From positions 1 through 64,000 of the IMG/VR virus record IMGVR_UViG_2778261352_000001: a stretch of 64,000 nucleotides of DNA. One strand, given 5' to 3'. Below are positions 18,104 to 50,624 of this stretch, one piece after another. The DNA is from a virus. Lineage: Duplodnaviria > Heunggongvirae > Uroviricota > Caudoviricetes. Every line of letters begins with the position of its first letter. The first letter of the stretch is position 1. Position numbers and translations under genes: made by a program. Under the pieces are notes generated by a model that was given only the letters and a program-made list of their open reading frames with translations, made no database searches and was not told the origin of the DNA.

Positions 18104-18120
18104 AAATTAATTAGAGCAAT
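18104..18120 (-). promoter_or_regulatory. C1 repressor operator
   Basis: reverse complement ATTGCTCTAATTAATTT, 20 bp upstream of ssb start. Confidence 0.6.
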
Positions 18121-31764: not shown

Positions 31765-31781
31765 CAATAAATTAGAGCAAT
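31765..31781 (-). promoter_or_regulatory. C1 repressor operator (ref)
   Basis: reverse complement ATTGCTCTAATTTATTG. Confidence 0.6.
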
Positions 31782-31913
31782 TGTAGACATTTCATTTATC
31801 GATAATCACATTTTTTCTCTTCAGTGCCTGTGTGCTATACTCCTTCTTGATTGATTGGATGCGGAATACAAACCCGCTCTTTTGTGCAGCCTGGCTCCTT
31901 GCCAGGCTTTTTT

Positions 31914-32225
31914 TTATTTCATCATGGAAGCTGTTAACGCTTTGGACCTTGCTGAACTGATTGAAAGGGCATTGTTTACCTTACCCAGGAGTTCGCCAAA
32001 TTCCCCCATCACTCTAGTAAGCCCGCGCCGCGCTTCCTCCTCCGTTGCATTCATCACAAAATGTTCAGCACTCCGCATGCTTTTAACGGGGAACGCAACA
32101 GATATCGAGTCGATATCAGGCATCCTATCGCTCAACTTTACGGTGACAATGACAGATGGTGACTGAATTTGAGAGCTTACAGACAGCACCACATATTTTC
32201 CGTCTATTTTGAATTCCTTCCGCAT
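31914..32225 (-). CDS. cra: Cra-like protein
   Basis: 103-aa ORF between cre and ref, ATG start; synteny. Confidence 0.4.
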   Translation of the reverse strand: MRKEFKIDGKYVVLSVSSQIQSPSVIVTVKLSDRMPDIDSISVAFPVKSMRSAEHFVMNATEEEARRGLTRVMGEFGELLGKVNNALSISSARSKALTASMMK

Positions 32226-32241
32226 GTGTCACCATAAATAT

Positions 32242-32258
32242 CAAATAATTAGAGCAAT
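32242..32258 (-). promoter_or_regulatory. C1 repressor operator
   Basis: reverse complement ATTGCTCTAATTATTTG, 17 nt upstream of cra start. Confidence 0.55.
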
Positions 32259-32275
32259 CAAGCGCAAATGAACGG

Positions 32276-33307
32276 CTAATCGCCATCTTCCAGCAGGCGC
32301 ACCATTGCCCCCGTTTCACTATCCAGATTACGGATATAGTTCATGACAATATTTACGTTGGTCCAGCCACCAGCTTGCATGATCTCCGGTATTGAAACTC
32401 CGGCGCGGGCCATATCTCGCGCGGCTCCGACACGGGCACTGTGTCCAGACCAAGCCAGGTACCTCTGGCCAGAGTCATCCTTAGCCCCGTAAATCAATCG
32501 GTGAGTTGCTTCAAAAATCCCTTCCAGGGCGCGAGTTGATAGCTGGCTGGTGGATGATGGCGAGGCAACACCATTTTTTCTGACCCGGCAAAACAAGTAG
32601 TTATTCGGATCATCAGCCACACCAGAGACAGAAATCCATCGCTCGACCAGTTTAGTTACCCCCAGGCTAAGCGCCTTCTCTACACCTGCGGTGCTAACCA
32701 GCGTTTTCGTTCTGCCAATATGGATTAACATTCTCCCACCGTCAGTACGTGAGATATCTTTAACCCTGATCCTGGCAATTTCGGCTATACGTAACAGGGT
32801 GTTATAAGCAATCCCCAGAAATGCCAGATTACGTATATCCTGGCAGCGATCGCTATTTTCCATGAGTGAACGAACCTGGTCGAAATCAGTGCGTTCGAAC
32901 GCTAGTGCCTGTTTTGCACGTTCACCGGCATCAACGTTTTCTTTTCGGATCCGCCGCATGACCAGTGAAACAGCATTGCTGTCACTTGGTCGTGGCAGCC
33001 CGGACCGACGATGAAGCATGTTTAGCTGGCCCAAATGTTGCTGGATAGTTTTTACTGCCAGACCGCGCGCCTGAAGATATAGAAGATAATCGCGAACATC
33101 TTCAGGTTCTGCGGGAAACCATTTCCGGTTATTCAACTTGCACCATGCCGCCCATGACCGGCAAACGGACAGAAGCATTTTCCAGGTATGCTCAGAAAAC
33201 GCCTGGCGATCCCTGAACATGTCCATCAGGTTCTTGCGAACCTCATCACTCGTTGCATCGACCGGTAATGCAGGCAAATTTTGGTGTACGGTCAGTAAAT
33301 TGGACAT
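32276..33307 (-). CDS. cre: Cre tyrosine recombinase
   Basis: 343 aa, MSNLLTVHQNLPALPVDATSDEVRKNLMDMFRDRQAFSEHTWKMLLSVCRSWAAWCKLNNRKWFPAEPEDVRDYLLYLQARGLAVKT... matches Cre. Confidence 0.97.
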   Translation of the reverse strand: MSNLLTVHQNLPALPVDATSDEVRKNLMDMFRDRQAFSEHTWKMLLSVCRSWAAWCKLNNRKWFPAEPEDVRDYLLYLQARGLAVKTIQQHLGQLNMLHRRSGLPRPSDSNAVSLVMRRIRKENVDAGERAKQALAFERTDFDQVRSLMENSDRCQDIRNLAFLGIAYNTLLRIAEIARIRVKDISRTDGGRMLIHIGRTKTLVSTAGVEKALSLGVTKLVERWISVSGVADDPNNYLFCRVRKNGVASPSSTSQLSTRALEGIFEATHRLIYGAKDDSGQRYLAWSGHSARVGAARDMARAGVSIPEIMQAGGWTNVNIVMNYIRNLDSETGAMVRLLEDGD

Positions 33308-33725
33308 TTAACACTCAGATAATGGTTTTAAGTAAAGTGTACAGGATCGGCTCTGCCTTTACCTGTTTATGATTCTCGTCATAGAAACGCCAGCGACCGC
33401 GCGTGCGTTCTATTTTCTCTTCACCGCGCGATAATGACAGTTGACAACTATCACGATCAAACCCTTTTGCCCGCCAGTAACCACGGTTTTTCTCAAGCTC
33501 AAGATGAGTGGACACTTTAGCAGCTGAATATCCCATTTTTCACCTCTGATTGATTGGTGGTGCTAAGTGCGCTACGCGAAATCTGGAGCACTAACACTGC
33601 CAACATTTCGCAGATTTTACGTAGCGCAACCTTGATCAAATGATCAAGTGATCACTATTTGACCTGATAAGGTATTGAACTGTATGGATTTACAGGTAAA
33701 TTGATCATGTTCAATAACCCTTAAG

Positions 33726-33759
33726 ATAACTTCGTATAATGTATGCTATACGAAGTTAT
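33726..33759 (+). other. loxP: loxP recombination site
   Basis: exact ATAACTTCGTATA-ATGTATGC-TATACGAAGTTAT. Confidence 0.97.
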
Positions 33760-33802
33760 TAGGTCCGAAGAGGAGTTTACGTCCAGCTGCGCATAAAAAT
33801 CA

Positions 33803-33819
33803 AGAATTATTAGAGCAAT
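33803..33819 (-). promoter_or_regulatory. C1 repressor operator (Op99-like)
   Basis: reverse complement ATTGCTCTAATAATTCT upstream of coi/c1. Confidence 0.55.
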
Positions 33820-33885
33820 AAATTTTGAGAGAAAAATCCCACTCCACCAGCCAAAAACTGGATTGTTTTTCATAGTTGTTTGACA

Positions 33886-33902
33886 ATTGCTCTAATAAAT
33901 TA
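33886..33902 (+). promoter_or_regulatory. C1 repressor operator overlapping c1/coi promoter
   Basis: ATTGCTCTAATAAATTA immediately after TTGACA -35 hexamer (33880-33885). Confidence 0.65.
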
Positions 33903-34140
33903 TAGTTTTGCCGCCGTTTCGTAATACGACTTTGGATTCACTATTTAATGTGTCTTCAGCGTTGTAGAGCGGCTCAGAAGGAAATGAGCAAACAGGGAAA
34001 CCTTATACAACGGCATTACAGCTATGCATTGCTCATCTTACACACAGCGCAATGTTGTTAGATTACCCCAGCATGGATCATGGGTGAAACAGTAGGTCAG
34101 AGCTTCAGGCTCTGTGTTGTCAATACAGTGAGGCATAATT

Positions 34141-34350
34141 ATGGCTTTCATTCCACCAACCATCGACGACGTTAGACATTGCTCTAACGCTTTATCTGTA
34201 GACCCCGCCGAAACCGACGCTGCCCGCGCCATTGCTGAACACTACTCAAAGATATCCAATCAGGAGTACCGCATCACCCAAGACGACCTGGATGATCTCA
34301 CTGACACAATCGAATATCTCATGGCCACTAACCAGCCAGACTCACAATAA
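34141..34350 (+). CDS. coi: C1 inactivator Coi
   Basis: 69 aa immediately upstream of c1, as in P1. Confidence 0.85.
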   Translation: MAFIPPTIDDVRHCSNALSVDPAETDAARAIAEHYSKISNQEYRITQDDLDDLTDTIEYLMATNQPDSQ

Positions 34351-34460
34351 ATGCACTAATAAATCTATTATTTTCGTTGGATCCTTCTATAATGGTGGCC
34401 AACAACTCCCAGTGTAATCCGCTGTGAGTTGTTGGCCATGTCAATTCTGGAGGAGGATCA

Positions 34461-45307: not shown

Positions 45308-46579
45308 TCATTGATTCACCTCCTGCGGCGGTTCTGGTAGCGGCATCCAGTGTGACGGTTTCCACGACGCACCAGGAATTATCCACCCATCATTAGCGTC
45401 AGGATGCCCCGGGATGTAAGTAGCCCATTTCATTCGCCAGTCACCTTTCCTGTCAAACTCCACGGCAACAAGAACGGCTGTTTTGGTATTCGGCATTCGC
45501 TCACTACAGCTTATCCAACCATCCGGAGTTACCGGAGAGTTGCCAGCTAGTCTACGCAAAACAGCCTTAACAGCCTCAATACGGTCATCATCGCAACTTT
45601 CCAGCGTATCTATGCGATCGAGCATGATGATGGCGTTATCAATATCAGGATTGCCGGTCCACTCATTACCGCGATTGGATTCGGCAGCCTGGTTGCCAGA
45701 TGCTGGTTGATTGTCGGCATGGCTATAGCTAACAGCACGGCAGGCATCCTCAACGCCTTTAACTGCATCTGCGCAGTAGTTATAGCGATTGCATTCCACT
45801 AATTTCCGTTTGAGTTTTTCAATTGCCTGCGCGACATCAGCCTGTATTACCGGAACTGGCGGAACGGCTGTTTGCTCTCGAACGTCATTAGTCGCTATCG
45901 GTTCTGCTGCCAACTGACTGGCATATTTGTTAATGGTAACGATAAGCTCTTGCTCAGCCTCATCCAGACAATCATCGATACCTCGCCTGTCACCGTCAAA
46001 ATCATCGAAATCGGCACGAATCTTGGCAACCTTCAGGATTGCGGACAACACCTCACTAGGAATTACCGGATAGTTGGTTGACGTTTCCGCGATTTCCCGA
46101 AAATTATTGGTTGACGAATTCTTGTTTTCCCGAAAGTTTCCGGACTGAAGCATGGCGTCGCTCCGCTCTATACCATCCAGCGCGATTCGCAGTGCCTGAA
46201 TTGTGGTAGAGCTATCGTTTGGGGCTATTCCATATCGCTCGAATACAGCTAAATGGTTGCGCATAATCTCAGGCGTAAGCTCTTTGTAAGCATAAGCAAG
46301 AGGCTCTGATGCATTATCCGGCACAACCGACGCAGGCGCGGCAGCATAAACAGGAATAACGTCCGCTTGCTCTTTATTGCTTTCATCCGTTAAAGCCCAG
46401 AATAATTTCCCGGCCGGATGTTTGAAAATATAAGCAACTGGTTCTGCTTCCAGTGATGCCAGCGCAATTTTGTATACTTCCAGATCCATTTGTGCAGTTA
46501 CTAAATCAGGATAACGATCCATAACCGTTATATTGCGCTTAATCATCTCTATTAATTGTTCTTTAGTAAAAGTGGTCAT
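45308..46579 (-). CDS. hypothetical protein with DUF551-like C-terminus
   Basis: 423 aa; C-terminal DGWISCSERMPN...SHWMPLPEPP; N-terminus shared with 47012-47398. Confidence 0.5.
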   Translation of the reverse strand: MTTFTKEQLIEMIKRNITVMDRYPDLVTAQMDLEVYKIALASLEAEPVAYIFKHPAGKLFWALTDESNKEQADVIPVYAAAPASVVPDNASEPLAYAYKELTPEIMRNHLAVFERYGIAPNDSSTTIQALRIALDGIERSDAMLQSGNFRENKNSSTNNFREIAETSTNYPVIPSEVLSAILKVAKIRADFDDFDGDRRGIDDCLDEAEQELIVTINKYASQLAAEPIATNDVREQTAVPPVPVIQADVAQAIEKLKRKLVECNRYNYCADAVKGVEDACRAVSYSHADNQPASGNQAAESNRGNEWTGNPDIDNAIIMLDRIDTLESCDDDRIEAVKAVLRRLAGNSPVTPDGWISCSERMPNTKTAVLVAVEFDRKGDWRMKWATYIPGHPDANDGWIIPGASWKPSHWMPLPEPPQEVNQ

Positions 46580-46589
46580 TCGTTATGCC

Positions 46590-46787
46590 TCAATACACAA
46601 AATCTGTTTTAAATTCATGGTTACATTCTGGACAGCATGTTTCGTAACCTTTTATTTCTTCACATGCCTGTTTTGCTCCAGAAAATTCCCAGAAATCTGG
46701 ATCACAAAGCAGATCGAAATTGTGACCGCATTTTGGACATTCGGTATCAAGTGACAGATTCCAGTAAGCAGTGGTGTTTTTATCCAT
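46590..46787 (-). CDS. small zinc-ribbon protein
   Basis: 65 aa, CPKC...CCPEC; ATG with AAGGAG RBS. Confidence 0.45.
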   Translation of the reverse strand: MDKNTTAYWNLSLDTECPKCGHNFDLLCDPDFWEFSGAKQACEEIKGYETCCPECNHEFKTDFVY

Positions 46788-46788
46788 A

Positions 46789-47052
46789 TCAGTCTCCTTT
46801 ACCCGCTGCTTTCTCCTGCTCTTTAGCAAGCCGCTCCGCTTCTCTGAAATCCCAATCCACTCGATGTGCTATATCAATTGCAGAACGCACGGTCCGTTCA
46901 ATTAGCGTGTCCAGATTATCAATTGTCATTGCCATATCTGGATTGCGAGATAAAATCTCCGCCCTCTGAATCTGCCAGTTGTTGCAGGTTTCAAGTAATG
47001 AGTTAGCCATATCACTTTCCTTTCCCATGAAGCATAGCCGCGCGGCAGGCAT
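46789..47052 (-). CDS. hypothetical protein
   Basis: 87 aa, ATG start. Confidence 0.4.
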   Translation of the reverse strand: MPAARLCFMGKESDMANSLLETCNNWQIQRAEILSRNPDMAMTIDNLDTLIERTVRSAIDIAHRVDWDFREAERLAKEQEKAAGKGD

Positions 47053-47398
47053 TCCAGCCTCTTACCTCTGCAATAGCGGCAACAGCATCAACCGCGTACA
47101 TGCTAAGAGGATTAGGCATTGGTTTTTCTTCCGGTACTACTGGAACGGGGGGAGCGGCGTAGACCTCAATAATTCCATTATCAATAGGCCACTCCCCATC
47201 CTTGATGTAGTCACTTGTGCCGTCAACTTGCTGTTCTGCAATGTGGAATGCACCTATTGGTTTTGCTTCCAGCGATGCCAGAGCAATTCGTGCCAGTTCT
47301 TCCGCTTCTTCTGCTGGCAGTACAACGTTGCTACCAGGTCCGTATGTTTCGCGCCACTGCTGGATTGTCAGCAGGCGTTCTTTGGTAATAGTGATCAT
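47012..47398 (-). CDS. hypothetical protein (shares N-terminal module with 45308-46579)
   Basis: 128 aa; IALASLEAKP motif. Confidence 0.45.
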   Translation of the reverse strand: MITITKERLLTIQQWRETYGPGSNVVLPAEEAEELARIALASLEAKPIGAFHIAEQQVDGTSDYIKDGEWPIDNGIIEVYAAPPVPVVPEEKPMPNPLSMYAVDAVAAIAEVRGWNACRAAMLHGKGK

Positions 47399-47533
47399 GC
47401 TGCGTTTCCTTCTTTCTTATTAACAATTACACCGTCATATATTTCATTAAGGTGCCCTCTCAACTCCATGCGCCTTAATGCAGATAACATGTAATCGCAT
47501 TCAACCTGCTTATTTCCAGTAAATGGCTTATCG

Positions 47534-47606
47534 TCAGGATTAACGGACTCGAACCGCTGACATCCTGCTTACAAGGCAGGCGCTCTACCAACTGAGCTAA
47601 ACCGGC
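47534..47606 (-). tRNA. tRNA-Thr-like (anticodon UGU)
   Basis: canonical D-arm, anticodon stem-loop CCUGC-CUUGUAA-GCAGG and T-arm GGTTCGAGTCC; acceptor stem pairs only 4 of 7 in manual fold. Confidence 0.5.
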
Positions 47607-47608
47607 AT

Positions 47609-47684
47609 TGGCGATGGTGGATGGATTTGAACCATCGACCCGTTGATTAACAGTCAACCGCTCTAACCACTGAGCTACACCATC
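47609..47684 (-). tRNA. tRNA-Asn (anticodon GUU)
   Basis: perfect cloverleaf by hand: acceptor GATGGTG/CACCATC, anticodon loop CUGUUAA, T-arm GATGG-TTCAAAT-CCATC, encoded CCA. Confidence 0.8.
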
Positions 47685-48149
47685 ACTTGCCGGGTACGTC
47701 TCCGGCGAGGGCTTCCACCTCCGTATGCTTTTCGGCGCACCGCGCCCTGACTGCAATTCGGTAACAGGGGATGCATAACCCTGGCTTCCAGCGTGATTAG
47801 CGCCTTCAGCATGACGGGATATACCCGTAAATTCGTGGAACTGTACCCAAAGTGCTGTTAAGCACCGCTGTTACGCTGAAAAGAAGACGCAACAGGAAAG
47901 GACGCTGACCAACAGATGGCCCCTTCTCGTTCATCTGGTTAATCACACCAGCGCCCTTACCTGTTGTGCCTCCCCGTTCCCTAATACACAGACGGGGACA
48001 CTCTGTGGTCGATTTTTTGACGGGGGACGACTCATACCCCGTGGCGTCTGGCTTCTTAGGCCGCTACCATCATCAGATCATCGTTTGCATTTACTTTAAT
48101 GGTCAGTTTCTAAACCGCCGCAAAGTCGCTAACCATGACGAAAACCCTG

Positions 48150-48176
48150 AAAAAAACGCCCACCCGAAGATGGGCA
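48150..48176 (-). terminator. rho-independent terminator
   Basis: minus-strand GCCCATC-TTCG-GGTGGGC followed by seven U. Confidence 0.55.
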
Positions 48177-48340
48177 AACTGGAAGCTCGTAACGCACTTC
48201 GGTGTTGCCACTTAGGCGCATGGTCAACCTGGCAACTCGGCGTCATGAGGGGGAAGGAGTCACTACCCCGCCATACTTGCCGCCGCGCCTGTCGCGGCTA
48301 ACAGCTAAATCGCTCTATAAATCACGATTCATTGAGGCGA
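48177..48340 (-). ncRNA. predicted C1-controlled small RNA (about 190 nt)
   Basis: ORF-free; promoter-like TTGCTC-N17-TAATAT overlapping C1 operator at 48353-48369; ends at terminator 48150-48176. Confidence 0.3.
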
Positions 48341-48352
48341 TATTACACTAAT

Positions 48353-48369
48353 AAATTTATTAGAGCAAT
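48353..48369 (-). promoter_or_regulatory. C1 repressor operator (perfect consensus)
   Basis: reverse complement ATTGCTCTAATAAATTT. Confidence 0.65.
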
Positions 48370-50624
48370 ATCGCCATAACGTCATGAGCAACACCACGAG
48401 TGTCTCCCTTACAAGACACAGAACGTCTGGCAAAGAGAGGTTCCACTCTGAAGCCTCTGTCCTGATAAAGTTCTCTGATGTTTGGCGCGCCACTGTTAGT
48501 AATGAGTACCTTTGCACCTCGGCGATGAGCATCCGTCAACAGAGACACCAGGCGTTTTTGCTCTTCAAACTTAAAGTCATGACCGGAATAGTTCGTGAAT
48601 CCCTCTGTATTTGGAAGCGGTTCATACGGCGGATCACAGAAGATGACATCTCCTTCTCCGGCAGCTTCAATCACCGCAGCAAAATCACCACATACAAACT
48701 CAGAACGCCCTTCCGCACCGAGGAAGGCTTCCATCTCCTGTAATGGGAAATACGGAGTTTTATACTTCCCATAACCGACATTGAACTCACCGGCCTGGTT
48801 GTAACGCGTCAATCCGTTAAAACAATGTCGGTTCAGGAACAAAAACGCCGCTGCGCGATGTAAATCATCATAGACTTGTTTGTTAAACGCATTCCGTACT
48901 GCCAGGTATCCTTCCTGTGTGTTGTAGTCCTGGAAAAACCGATGCGCCAGTGTGATAAGTGAATGCGCCTCGCGTTGCAGAGTCTTGTAAAAGTTAATCA
49001 GGTCAGCATTCACATCATTTAGCAGATTTTCCTGGTATCCGGCATTCGTGAAGACAGCTCCGCCACCGACAAAAGGTTCGATCAGGCGCTTCCCTTCTGG
49101 CAAATAGCGAAAGATTTGTTCCAGAACACCAAATTTTCCACCAGCCCATTTGAATATGGACCGTTCGAATTCTGCCGCTGGTTTAACTTTTCGCTCTTTT
49201 GTTTCACTTCCTTCTTTCTGCCGACATACGGCCTTAGTAATTCGATCGCCAATCCAGCGCATTACTGGTATTGCCATACTATTGCCGATCGCTTTGTAAC
49301 GCGGTCCGTCAGCTGCAAGCATCGCGGCCTCTTCTTCGCTTAAATCTGGATAGTGATTGTGCAGATATGCCAGTTCATCTGAATTAACTTTTTTACGCTT
49401 TTCCGTAGGGATCAACGTATGCCCATCAGGAAAACCTTGAAGTCTCTCACATTCGACAGGGGTAAGACGGCGGACAGCTACTTCTTCGTTTCTTACTTCA
49501 TAGCAAACAGCAGTTGGATTTTGAGCCATTAGAGATGGTGAAGTATTCTTAGTTGCTGCATGTTGTGTACCACTCATACGCTCAGGAAAAGCCAATGTAA
49601 CAAGATGCTCATGGCTTTCTTGCTCACGCGCCCGCAATGTACCATGCCCTTCTGACCAAAAACCTGCTCCAGTGCTGCTAAAAACGGCAAGGTCAGTGGC
49701 ATCTTTAAAGTCTCTTGCCTTTACTGTCGATGCGGTTTCATCGTCAATATATTCCCCAAATGCCGCCATCCTGAAACCGTTTACGGCTTTCGTCGATTTC
49801 ATATCGGGGGACATGCCAGCGTGTAGGCATGGATTTAGGCTTTCGCCACTGATTGCAGCGCCATTTGCAGTAATGGCGGAAGCGATTTCCTTCTTTTTTC
49901 GGCTCGGCGCAATATTCCGGCGCACGCCTTCGAACTCAAAAAGTACCGTTGCGGGATCGAGGTCTGTTCGAGCACTTGCGACAACAAACACGCGTCGGCG
50001 TCGTTGTGCCACTCCGAAGTATTGGGCATCAAGGATTCTCCAGGCCACCTTTCGCTGCGGTCCATAAATACAACCACACTGCGGCCACTTTGGAGCATGG
50101 CAACCGGTTTTGACATCCCACCGCCAGAACGTGTTACTTTTTCGTGATTCAGGTCGATCACCAGGTTCGAATGGCGCATCTTCTCCAGCCAATCCGGCAA
50201 GGAAACATCCGAACGCGTTGTCTGCTGATGACAGGACTCCTGGGACATTTTCCCAGACGATAACTGTCGGTTTGAGGAAGGACTCAGACCGTTTGTCGTC
50301 AATTGCATTTGCAAGCTCCACATACTTCAAAGTTAGCGCGCCGCGTTCATCATCAAGCCCACCACGTAAGCCCGCGATACTGAATGCCTGACAAGGCGTA
50401 CCCCCGACGAGCACATCAGGGGCTTCAATTTCTCCGGCCTGGACTTTTTGGGCGAGTTTTGTCATGTCGCCAAGGTTCGCGACATGGGGCCAGCGGTGCG
50501 CAAGAACGGCAGATGGAAAAGACTCGATTTCAGCAAACCACGCCGGACGCATACCCAACGGTTCCCAGGCAATACTCGCGGCTTCAATTCCACTGCAAAC
50601 AGATCCATAGCACAGCTCTTTCAC
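48360..50624 (-). CDS. dmt: Dmt bifunctional DNA methyltransferase (C5-cytosine + Dam-like N6-adenine)
   Basis: 754 aa; N-terminal PCQ motif ([12 protein letters not shown]), C-terminal WAGGK and DPPY (FCDPPYEPL). Confidence 0.85.

Follow-up and report, generated by a model that had tools for sequence, protein, structure and literature searches.

The interval between the dmt gene and a pair of tRNA genes was analyzed in a 64,000-nt stretch of viral DNA (positions 1 to 64,000 of IMG/VR record IMGVR_UViG_2778261352_000001), called the window here, whose sequence places it among the P1/P7-type phage-plasmids. The interval contains an element that resembles the coding part of a transfer-messenger RNA (tmRNA). 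This element appears to belong to a so far undescribed and widespread class of phage RNA, namely a tmRNA derivative that has no tRNA-like domain and that carries an arm predicted to be antisense to the tmRNA of the host, SsrA. Literature searches returned no description of a tmRNA-like or anti-tmRNA phage RNA without a tRNA-like domain. As a whole, the dmt-to-tRNA interval forms the C1-repressed ban-operon leader of a P1-type phage and is built of two mosaic modules, A and B (Table 1). Transcription runs leftward throughout, on the minus strand.

In a distant BLAST search of the leader against phage genomes, window positions 48146..47970 had matches in widely differing phages, in intergenic DNA most of which carries no annotation. 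Homologs were found in Vi01-like and Serratia phages of the Ackermannviridae, in the G7C-like phage ECBP1, in T1-like phages (Drexlerviridae and relatives), in the lambdoid phage HK633, and in Aeromonas and Vibrio phages. The Rfam models for permuted, alpha and beta tmRNA gave recurrent sub-threshold matches both in the window and in many of the homologs. A scan of IMG/VR with the resume context of the element added 26 further loci of this type, together with 33 loci whose tags were of the alpha/beta type. In T1-like phages, a sigma-70-like promoter was read by eye immediately upstream of the element, and in HK633 the element lies between Q/PR' and the holin gene.

The bacterial distribution was surveyed with one genome per GTDB species and the pattern GTTTTCG-N25-55-TAAATGCAAACGA. 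Forty-two matches were obtained, about 30 of them by chance inside genes, and true copies were confined to contigs of Enterobacterales. A 5.9-kb contig of a metagenome-assembled genome labelled 'Bacillota bacterium' (JAFAFU010000017.1, locus L158) likewise contained P1-type sequence in which terminator, arm and tag are the same, most likely through mis-binning or contamination.

The element carries a resume signal and a short tag frame. U at -5 and A at -4 before the resume codon were invariant in all 36 aligned sequences. Their counterparts in E. coli tmRNA are U85 and A86, which are the chief determinants of the frame there (PMC2481249). The homologs kept the frame GCA AAC GAx ... GCN GCN stop. 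The predicted tags were ANDDLMMVAA in the window and in P1, ANDDLMMAAA in P7, ANEEMYLAVA in HK633, ANDNTFLAVA in Vi01 and ANDDVVLMAA in ECBP1; the SsrA tag of E. coli, for comparison, is ANDENYALAA.

All 25 distinct tag frames consisted of 10 codons and a stop, and TAA, TAG and TGA were all used. Over the same 25 sequences, the entropy at codon positions 1, 2 and 3 was 0.60, 0.43 and 0.96, and synonymous codon differences numbered 416 in the tag frame compared to 23 and 123 in the other two frames, both of which were interrupted by stops in most of the sequences. Furthermore, the element of Serratia phage 3M specified a peptide identical to that of a genuine permuted tmRNA, with 5 synonymous differences between them. 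This pattern points to coding selection on the frame, whose predicted product, like a tmRNA tag, is short, ends in hydrophobic residues and Ala-Ala, and is followed by the stop.

Among P1-like elements, the tags varied slightly. P7 differed by V8A, locus L250 by D4N, and locus L158 by a synonymous change of GAT to GAC. Lambdoid elements with near-identical arms had quite different tags (ANEEMYLAVA, ANDDVVLMAA and ANDDLMLMAA), which suggests a cassette-like exchange of the tag.

The folds predicted around and downstream of the stop codon were supported by covariation. The helix-5-like hairpin, which holds the stop codon in its loop, was paired in 96% of the cells and had compensatory changes in 2 pairs. 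In pseudoknot A, for which the P1-type register was read by hand, stem 1 was 99% paired with 3 covarying pairs, and stem 2 also had 3. When the hairpin and the two H-type pseudoknots were taken together in the 36-sequence alignment, 92.2% of the cells were paired, compared to 38-45% with slid partners. Changes on both sides were found in 12 pairs, and the number of doubly changed cells was 93 against 24±5 in shuffles (0/500 as good). A stop in the loop of a putative helix 5, followed by pseudoknots, is the arrangement known from tmRNA.

The closest known relative is the coding piece of the two-piece (permuted) tmRNAs of alpha- and beta-proteobacteria and phages (RF01849, RF01850 and RF04321). 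The element shares with it the resume context AUAAAU-GCAAACGA, tags of the ANDxxxLMAA or LAVA type, including the one identical peptide, the stop in a hairpin, and the downstream pseudoknots. In contrast to that piece, the element is not accompanied by an acceptor piece, it has neither a 5' GGGG acceptor strand nor a conserved D-loop UUCGAC, and its 5' domain is instead complementary to the one-piece tmRNA of the host. Many complete permuted tmRNA genes with AUAAAU-GCAAACGA were observed in viral contigs (IMG/VR loci L020-L127), with tags such as ANDNAFLMAA and ANDERFLMAA; the enteric-phage element probably originated from this lineage.

A tRNA-like domain was sought in several ways. ARAGORN reported no tmRNA in the window or in any homolog locus scanned and was positive in control loci; it called 20/33 of the IMG/VR loci with alpha/beta-type tags as permuted tmRNA, 2/33 as standard tmRNA, and 0/26 of the element-type loci. 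A T-arm pattern scan of the 64-kb window found T-arms only in the two tRNAs, and the Rfam model search for the tRNA-like domain was negative for both the window and the HK633 genome. In the complete HK633 genome, ARAGORN detected neither a tRNA nor a tmRNA, and Rfam gave no match of either kind at E<=1. The sequence upstream of the GUUUUCG seed of the element was not conserved and contained no GGGG acceptor strand. The element therefore appears to lack the acceptor stem with G3:U70, the T-arm and the CCA end that make up the tRNA-like domain of a tmRNA. In the tmRNA database papers, phage tmRNAs are listed only with this domain, and candidates without CCA-end positions were rejected.

In place of the tRNA-like domain, the 5' domain of the element is complementary to nt 56-106 of SsrA, a region that spans the 3' half of pseudoknot 1 (PK1), the A-rich linker, UAGUC, the resume codon, and codons 1-6. 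The tests used E. coli ssrA as the target for the arms of all phages. Full-length RNAduplex predictions gave whole-molecule duplexes and were discarded, and run-length and local-window analyses were used instead. In 34 of the 36 elements, the longest Watson-Crick run against SsrA was the invariant seed (UA)GUUUUCGU(C), which pairs with SsrA nt 96-106, GACGAAAACUA, that is, with tag codons 3-6.

For the arm of the window (48147..48100), RNAduplex predicted 38 bp at -46.3 kcal/mol, whereas shuffles reached -19.7±3.9 with a best value of -33.8 (0/500 as good). All 26 distinct 5' domains behaved in the same way against SsrA 55-110, with a mean of -40.7 kcal/mol and 0/100 shuffles as good for each. 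The corresponding controls were -15.9 for shuffles, -16.6 for the resume regions of five genuine permuted tmRNAs, and -18.7 for the reversed target. Along SsrA, the optimum fell in windows starting at nt 56-76. Two types of arm were distinguished, type I with GCGACU + UUGCGG + N-UUUUUA and type II with a contiguous GCGnyUrUUUUU; they hit the same region of SsrA in different registers, and both stay complementary. The arms were not complementary to the resume region of their own element (-8.5 to -17 kcal/mol), and the element's own positions -3..-1 and codons 3-5 differ from those of the host exactly where self-folding would otherwise result. The complementarity to a host non-coding RNA is thus extended, conserved and beyond chance, as expected of an antisense RNA, and we take the arm to be a candidate of that kind.

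Two other explanations of conserved segments were tried and set aside. A reading of GUUUUCGUC as the mere D-loop of a tmRNA (UUCGAC) was less likely, since the A is not conserved and the upstream U and A that extend the complementarity to SsrA are. A long-range helix between the conserved UUUGCGG and a partner CCGCAA/U was found in three loci and was missing from most.

Table 1. Observed and predicted features in and around the dmt-to-tRNA interval (window positions)
Feature	Position	Strand	Description
Module A	48369..~48180	-	Op72ab; P1ban; copy of the dicF-preceding structured leader of lambdoid prophages
C1 operator Op72a (Obana)	48353..48369	-	0 mismatches to ATTGCTCTAATAAATTT; overlaps dmt stop codon (48360-48362)
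C1 operator Op72b	48342..48358	+	15/17 matches; 6-bp overlap with Op72a
Promoter P1ban	48340..48368	-	-35 TTGCTC 48368..48363, 17-nt spacer, -10 TAATAT 48345..48340; read from sequence
dicF-leader-like module	48200..48303	-	three predicted hairpins; loop GGUUGACCAUGCGCCUAAG highly conserved
P1-specific small-RNA 3' module	48150..48199	-	25-nt single-stranded stretch GAAGUGCGUUACGAGCUUCCAGUUU, then intrinsic terminator
Module B	48178..47533	-	starts at terminator hairpin; holds ~180-nt RNA apparently derived from two-piece tmRNA coding piece
Intrinsic terminator	stem 48176..48157, U run 48156..48150	-	8 pairs, UUCG loop, seven U
5' domain (predicted antisense arm)	48100..48147	-	against SsrA nt 56-106; invariant seed GUUUUCG 48145..48139
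Resume signal GUAAAU	48094..48089	-	U at -5, A at -4, before GCA resume codon
Tag frame GCA..GCC	48088..48059	-	ANDDLMMVAA, 10 codons; stop UAA 48058..48056
Helix-5-like hairpin, stop codon in loop	48042..48069	-	outer UGGU 48069..48066/GCCA 48045..48042; inner GGC 48062..48060/GCC 48052..48050
Pseudoknot A	48008..48041	-	stem 1 CGGGG 48041..48037/CCCCG 48025..48021; stem 2 GUCG 48031..48028/CGAC 48011..48008
Pseudoknot B	47971..48007	-	stem 1 CACAGA 48007..48002/UCUGUG 47992..47987; stem 2 UCCCCG 47998..47993/CGGGGA 47976..47971
Long hairpin GCACAACAGGUAAGGG...CCUUUCCUGUUGCG	47888..47969	-	-37.9 kcal/mol; recurs beside element in many phages
Remaining structured leader before tRNA-Asn	47685..47887	-	present in P1-like elements only, in these searches
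tRNA-Asn(GUU)	47609-47684	-	same transcription unit as tRNA-Thr
tRNA-Thr(UGU)	47533-47605	-	same transcription unit as tRNA-Asn

The interval had been the subject of an earlier note on this DNA, which described a perfect C1 operator overlapping a TTGCTC-N17-TAATAT promoter, a strong terminator about 190 nt further on, no plausible protein, and a non-coding, GC-rich and stem-rich remainder before tRNA-Asn, and which took the whole for a regulatory RNA or a tRNA-operon leader. These observations were borne out. The window was scanned with the 17-bp asymmetric consensus ATTGCTCTAATAAATTT, counting sites with up to 3 mismatches, and the operator matched without mismatch at 48353-48369, with the promoter hexamers at 48368..48340. 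The terminator stem and its seven U were located about 184 nt from the expected start near 48333. The 111-aa plus-strand open reading frame (ORF; 47966-48301) had no match in the PHROG search, and its counterparts in P1 and P7 are interrupted by frameshifts or stops; a 49-aa ORF likewise had no PHROG match. The G+C content of 47685-48150 was 53% against 48% for the whole window, and this part was highly structured. As for the interpretation, C1 control, the non-coding character, the position as a tRNA leader and a possible terminator-bounded RNA of ~184 nt stood, while the dicF-leader nature of the 5' two-thirds of this small RNA, and the tmRNA-derived element with its anti-SsrA arm within the 'remaining 390 bp', had been missed.

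Op72a and Op72b form a bivalent operator at the same positions as in the P1 and P7 annotation. In the whole window, 10 C1-operator-like sites with up to 3 mismatches were found, compared to 0.35 expected from shuffles. The P1ban hexamers are identical in position to the -35 and -10 annotated in the P1 record; a generic sigma-70 scan did not list this promoter because its -35 matches TTGACA at only 3/6 positions. The P1 record annotates the same bases as Obanab (former Op72ab), P1ban, P2ban, and a 102-nt 'dicF-like region' that ends at the terminator, and in the P7 record control of the tRNAs and ban is assigned to the same operators. The feature flagged by the earlier note (Op72, Pban and the dicF-like RNA) corresponds, on comparison with these records, to the already known head of the ban operon and is by itself of low interest. 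The promoter is that of the ban operon, and ban lies several kb downstream; given this distance, the terminator cannot be fully efficient, and a good share of transcription must pass it.

Positions 48297..48200 on the minus strand showed about 81% identity over 98 nt to the sequence that closely precedes mature DicF in Qin and other prophages. Of 5426 complete E. coli genomes, 4418 carried this dicF-leader spot, and a single genome could have as many as 9 copies of it; in K-12, it lies between ydfC and dicB and ends 25 nt before mature DicF. The consensus fold of the leader had few compensatory changes because the sequence set was not very diverse. After the shared leader, a P1-type 3' module of about 50 nt stands in the place of DicF. 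The layout is that of DicF, with a conserved 5' leader, a position within an operon and an intrinsic terminator at the 3' end. The Rfam covariance-model search that the earlier note had proposed was run at E<=10 and returned tRNAs and weak tmRNA-family matches only. The DicF model (RF00039) had no match in 46500-49500 at this threshold, and the positive control, K-12 dicF, scored 76.7 bits. At gathering scores, the Rfam search of the whole window gave the two tRNAs and nothing else.

In IMG/VR prophages, the same leader was followed by varied 3' modules: canonical DicF, at least 5 variant stem-loops, and the P1 type, GAAGUGCGUUACGAGCUUCCAGUUU plus terminator. Non-canonical stem-loop and terminator modules were seen in the prophage contigs L237, L183, L193, L197 and L202. 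This suggests a cassette family of a leader with an exchangeable small RNA, in which DicF is merely the commonest. The P1 RNA would then be a DicF-family-like construct outside RF00039, with the shared leader and a swapped small-RNA cargo. It resembles DicF of the Qin dicB operon in the ~100-nt structured leader directly 5' of the small RNA, and in the placement of that RNA inside a repressor-controlled operon, with an intrinsic terminator at its end and read-through to downstream genes; it differs in that the mature small-RNA part is unrelated in sequence. The single-stranded stretch of P1 had no obvious similarity to the DicF seed, and its candidate targets within the phage window were 9-10-mers at chance level.

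D6-type plasmids are homologous to the window solely from ~48178 leftward, and in Erwinia and Rosenbergiella prophages a terminator-like hairpin with a U run stands immediately 5' of GUUUUCG. Therefore, the terminator hairpin is part of the tmRNA-like module, and the mosaic joint immediately precedes it.

We put at about even the chance that the element RNA is a host-tmRNA-directed derivative that blocks or replaces the tag template of the host. The replacement itself, a template swap in which the tag template of the phage is used in place of that of the host, can be proposed only tentatively. Transcripts from P1ban that stop at the terminator would give the DicF-family-like RNA of ~184 nt. 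After derepression or infection, read-through and processing would free the tmRNA-like RNA, which would anneal to host tmRNA over the resume codon and the first codons. The phage strand would exit from the duplex beside the host PK1, and its own U(-5), A(-4) and GCA would follow after a linker. This A/U-rich linker is 13-29 nt in the phage elements compared to 11 nt in the host SsrA. Because of the exit next to PK1 and this linker length, the phage template would occupy the usual place of the host template. As the likeliest outcome of the annealing, the phage resume codon and tag would thus be set next to the tRNA-like domain and PK1 of the host, and rescued proteins would receive a tag specified by the phage. 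Such a template swap, with docking through about 40-50 nt of base-pairing, would amount to a hybrid tmRNA assembled in trans, and it is proposed for phages of Enterobacterales and related hosts, including P1. In a fallback version, the phage RNA would simply block or destroy the host template.

Several points weigh against this proposal. The terminator lies directly upstream of the element, so that read-through from Pban is needed. We know of no mechanism by which a ribosome resumes on a template that is held to tmRNA by an intermolecular duplex alone. The duplex between the arm and SsrA would unfold stem 2 of PK1. Type II arms were much weaker, at -23 to -27 kcal/mol, and the P1 arm was partly self-paired in the minimum free energy model of the isolated RNA, with a mean unpaired probability of 0.3. 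The arms descend from one or two ancestors, and their complementarity therefore represents few independent events. A host tmRNA variant, ACAGACGCAAACGACGAAAAC, predicted from the arm of an Aeromonas phage, had 0 matches in a scan that covered viral contigs only. Finally, T-arm hairpins occur near some homologs, and a lost or cryptic acceptor partner is possible in those lineages.

The alternative that survives best, and which we still consider unlikely, is that the element acts only as an antisense inhibitor or sponge of tmRNA. It would mask the resume codon or create a substrate for RNase III and so turn tagging off in lytic growth, with the tag frame and the pseudoknots persisting for stability or for binding of S1, SmpB or RNase R and never being translated. 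The arm is indeed the most conserved and best supported functional feature, and no tRNA-like domain is available for ribosome entry. A mirror-image precedent is the tmRNA fragment of mycobacteriophage DS6A, which consists of the tRNA-like domain only and is of a kind reported to inhibit tmRNA (PMC4131195). Both are partial tmRNAs borne by a phage with a proposed interference in host trans-translation, and they differ in representing opposite halves, since DS6A has the tRNA-like domain and the element has the message and pseudoknot part with the antisense arm. However, a purely antisense role leaves unexplained both the codon signature (always 10 codons, interchanging stops, third-position variation of the Ala codons, and a synonymous excess) and the invariant U(-5) A(-4) resume context. 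The template swap accounts for all features jointly, whereas a pure block accounts for the arm and not for the coding signature, and descent as a relic accounts for neither.

In a view along the lines of the earlier note, the functional product is the C1-controlled, terminator-bounded RNA of ~184 nt, or its processed 3' 50 nt, acting in trans as a DicF-type riboregulator, with everything downstream serving just as a tRNA leader. The promoter, operator and terminator are real, and a shared leader before a variable 3' small RNA with a terminator occurs in dicF and in several variants. As an account of the interval, this view is improbable: the RNA has no match to the Rfam DicF model and no target in the window beyond 9-10-mers, the terminator hairpin travels with the downstream module in the D6-type phages and the Erwinia and Rosenbergiella prophages, and the conserved tmRNA-like element is left out of account. 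The small RNA that it describes is compatible with the template swap or block favoured here and does not exclude it. Least probable is that the element is the decaying remainder of a two-piece phage tmRNA that was formerly complete, and that it now serves only as a structured spacer or processing scaffold for the tRNA/ban transcript, with a fortuitous complementarity to SsrA: its very frequent linkage to tRNA genes, the T-arm-containing hairpins beside it at some loci, and the genuine permuted tmRNAs with the same resume context in viral contigs would fit such a relic, but frames, stops and covarying pseudoknots are maintained across very different phage families, every arm variant is 20-30 kcal/mol better than shuffles and unrelated tmRNA targets, and the element's own resume region has diverged exactly at the positions that would otherwise make it self-complementary.

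The tmRNA-SmpB system is the universal ribosome-rescue system of bacteria, and several phages depend on it. If the proposal of a block or swap is true, trans-translation would have its first natural RNA antagonist or hijacker in the element, which both mimics and complements the host template, and tmRNA function could be split and then re-assembled across genomes. Under a true template swap, infection would reprogram the C-terminal tag, and hence the proteolytic fate, of proteins from stalled ribosomes. Hundreds of mostly unannotated intergenic regions beside phage tRNA genes would also be explained. One consequence for annotation is that such RNAs will always escape tmRNA finders that depend on a tRNA-like domain. 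A further likeness, in mode of action, is to AgvB and AsxR of enterohemorrhagic E. coli, which Tree et al. reportedly described in 2014 as prophage-encoded anti-small RNAs. The element would likewise act by pairing with a host non-coding RNA; it differs in that the proposed target is tmRNA rather than an Hfq-dependent small RNA, and in that it carries a translatable template of its own.

Many phages have long hairpins, CACAACAGGUAAGAGC...GCUCUUUCCGUUGUG, on the flanks of the element; these hairpins may be processing sites. At some loci, they enclose a canonical T-arm, e.g., GAGGGUUCGAAUCCCUAC, so that a long stem closes a tRNA-like three-way junction. Hairpins of this type were observed in L050 (~140 to 20 nt upstream of the element), L064 (+165 to +270), L032 (+340 to +430), L009 (~1038) and L008 (433-581), and Vi01 has an upstream 150-nt tRNA-like RNA with a 7-bp acceptor-like stem. 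None of these structures was called by ARAGORN or by the Rfam YrlA model. A relation of the long hairpins to Y RNA (YrlA, RF02553) was also considered and rejected, as YrlA had no match on them and its sole weak match overlaps the tRNAs. An alternative pairing is possible in an E. coli prophage (L004, 2400-2520, between the Q and holin genes): the upstream long hairpin has a 3' strand, UAUCGUUGUG, that can form a perfect 10-bp helix with CACAACGAUA, the sequence directly preceding the GUUUUCG seed. Exposure of the seed might be controlled by such a structural switch. In ECBP1 (L005), the element is flanked by odd tRNA-like genes at 510-581 and 873-951. One was called tRNA-Ala(CGC) by ARAGORN and had a weak tRNA-Sec match in Rfam, and the other is a 79-nt 'tRNA-Cys(ACA)' that the record lists as a pseudo-tRNA.

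The queried stretch was 98.6% identical to P7 and 96% to P1. The dmt gene ends at 48360, and tRNA-Asn and tRNA-Thr follow about 680 nt further along the minus strand. The operator pair, the promoter hexamers, and the order of dmt stop, operator, leader, tRNA-Asn and tRNA-Thr are as in P1 (GenBank AF234172, annotation of Lobocka et al. 2004) and P7; the P1 annotation differs in making no mention of the tmRNA-like feature. Elsewhere in the window, eight other C1-operator-like sites with 1-3 mismatches were located at 18104, 21954, 31765, 32242, 33803, 33886, 34350 and 51875, and their cluster at 31765-34366 is presumably the immunity region. Left of tRNA-Thr, the window parts from both P1 and P7. 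There, P1 and P7 carry plp, upl and tciABC, and the window instead has DNA that Stx-converting and other lambdoid phages share at 100% identity. This lambdoid-type stretch covers 47400-47543 and extends leftward to ~45300, with the mosaic joint at the 3' end of tRNA-Thr, and it contains four minus-strand ORFs, at 45308-46579, 46590-46829, 46789-47052 and 47012-47398.

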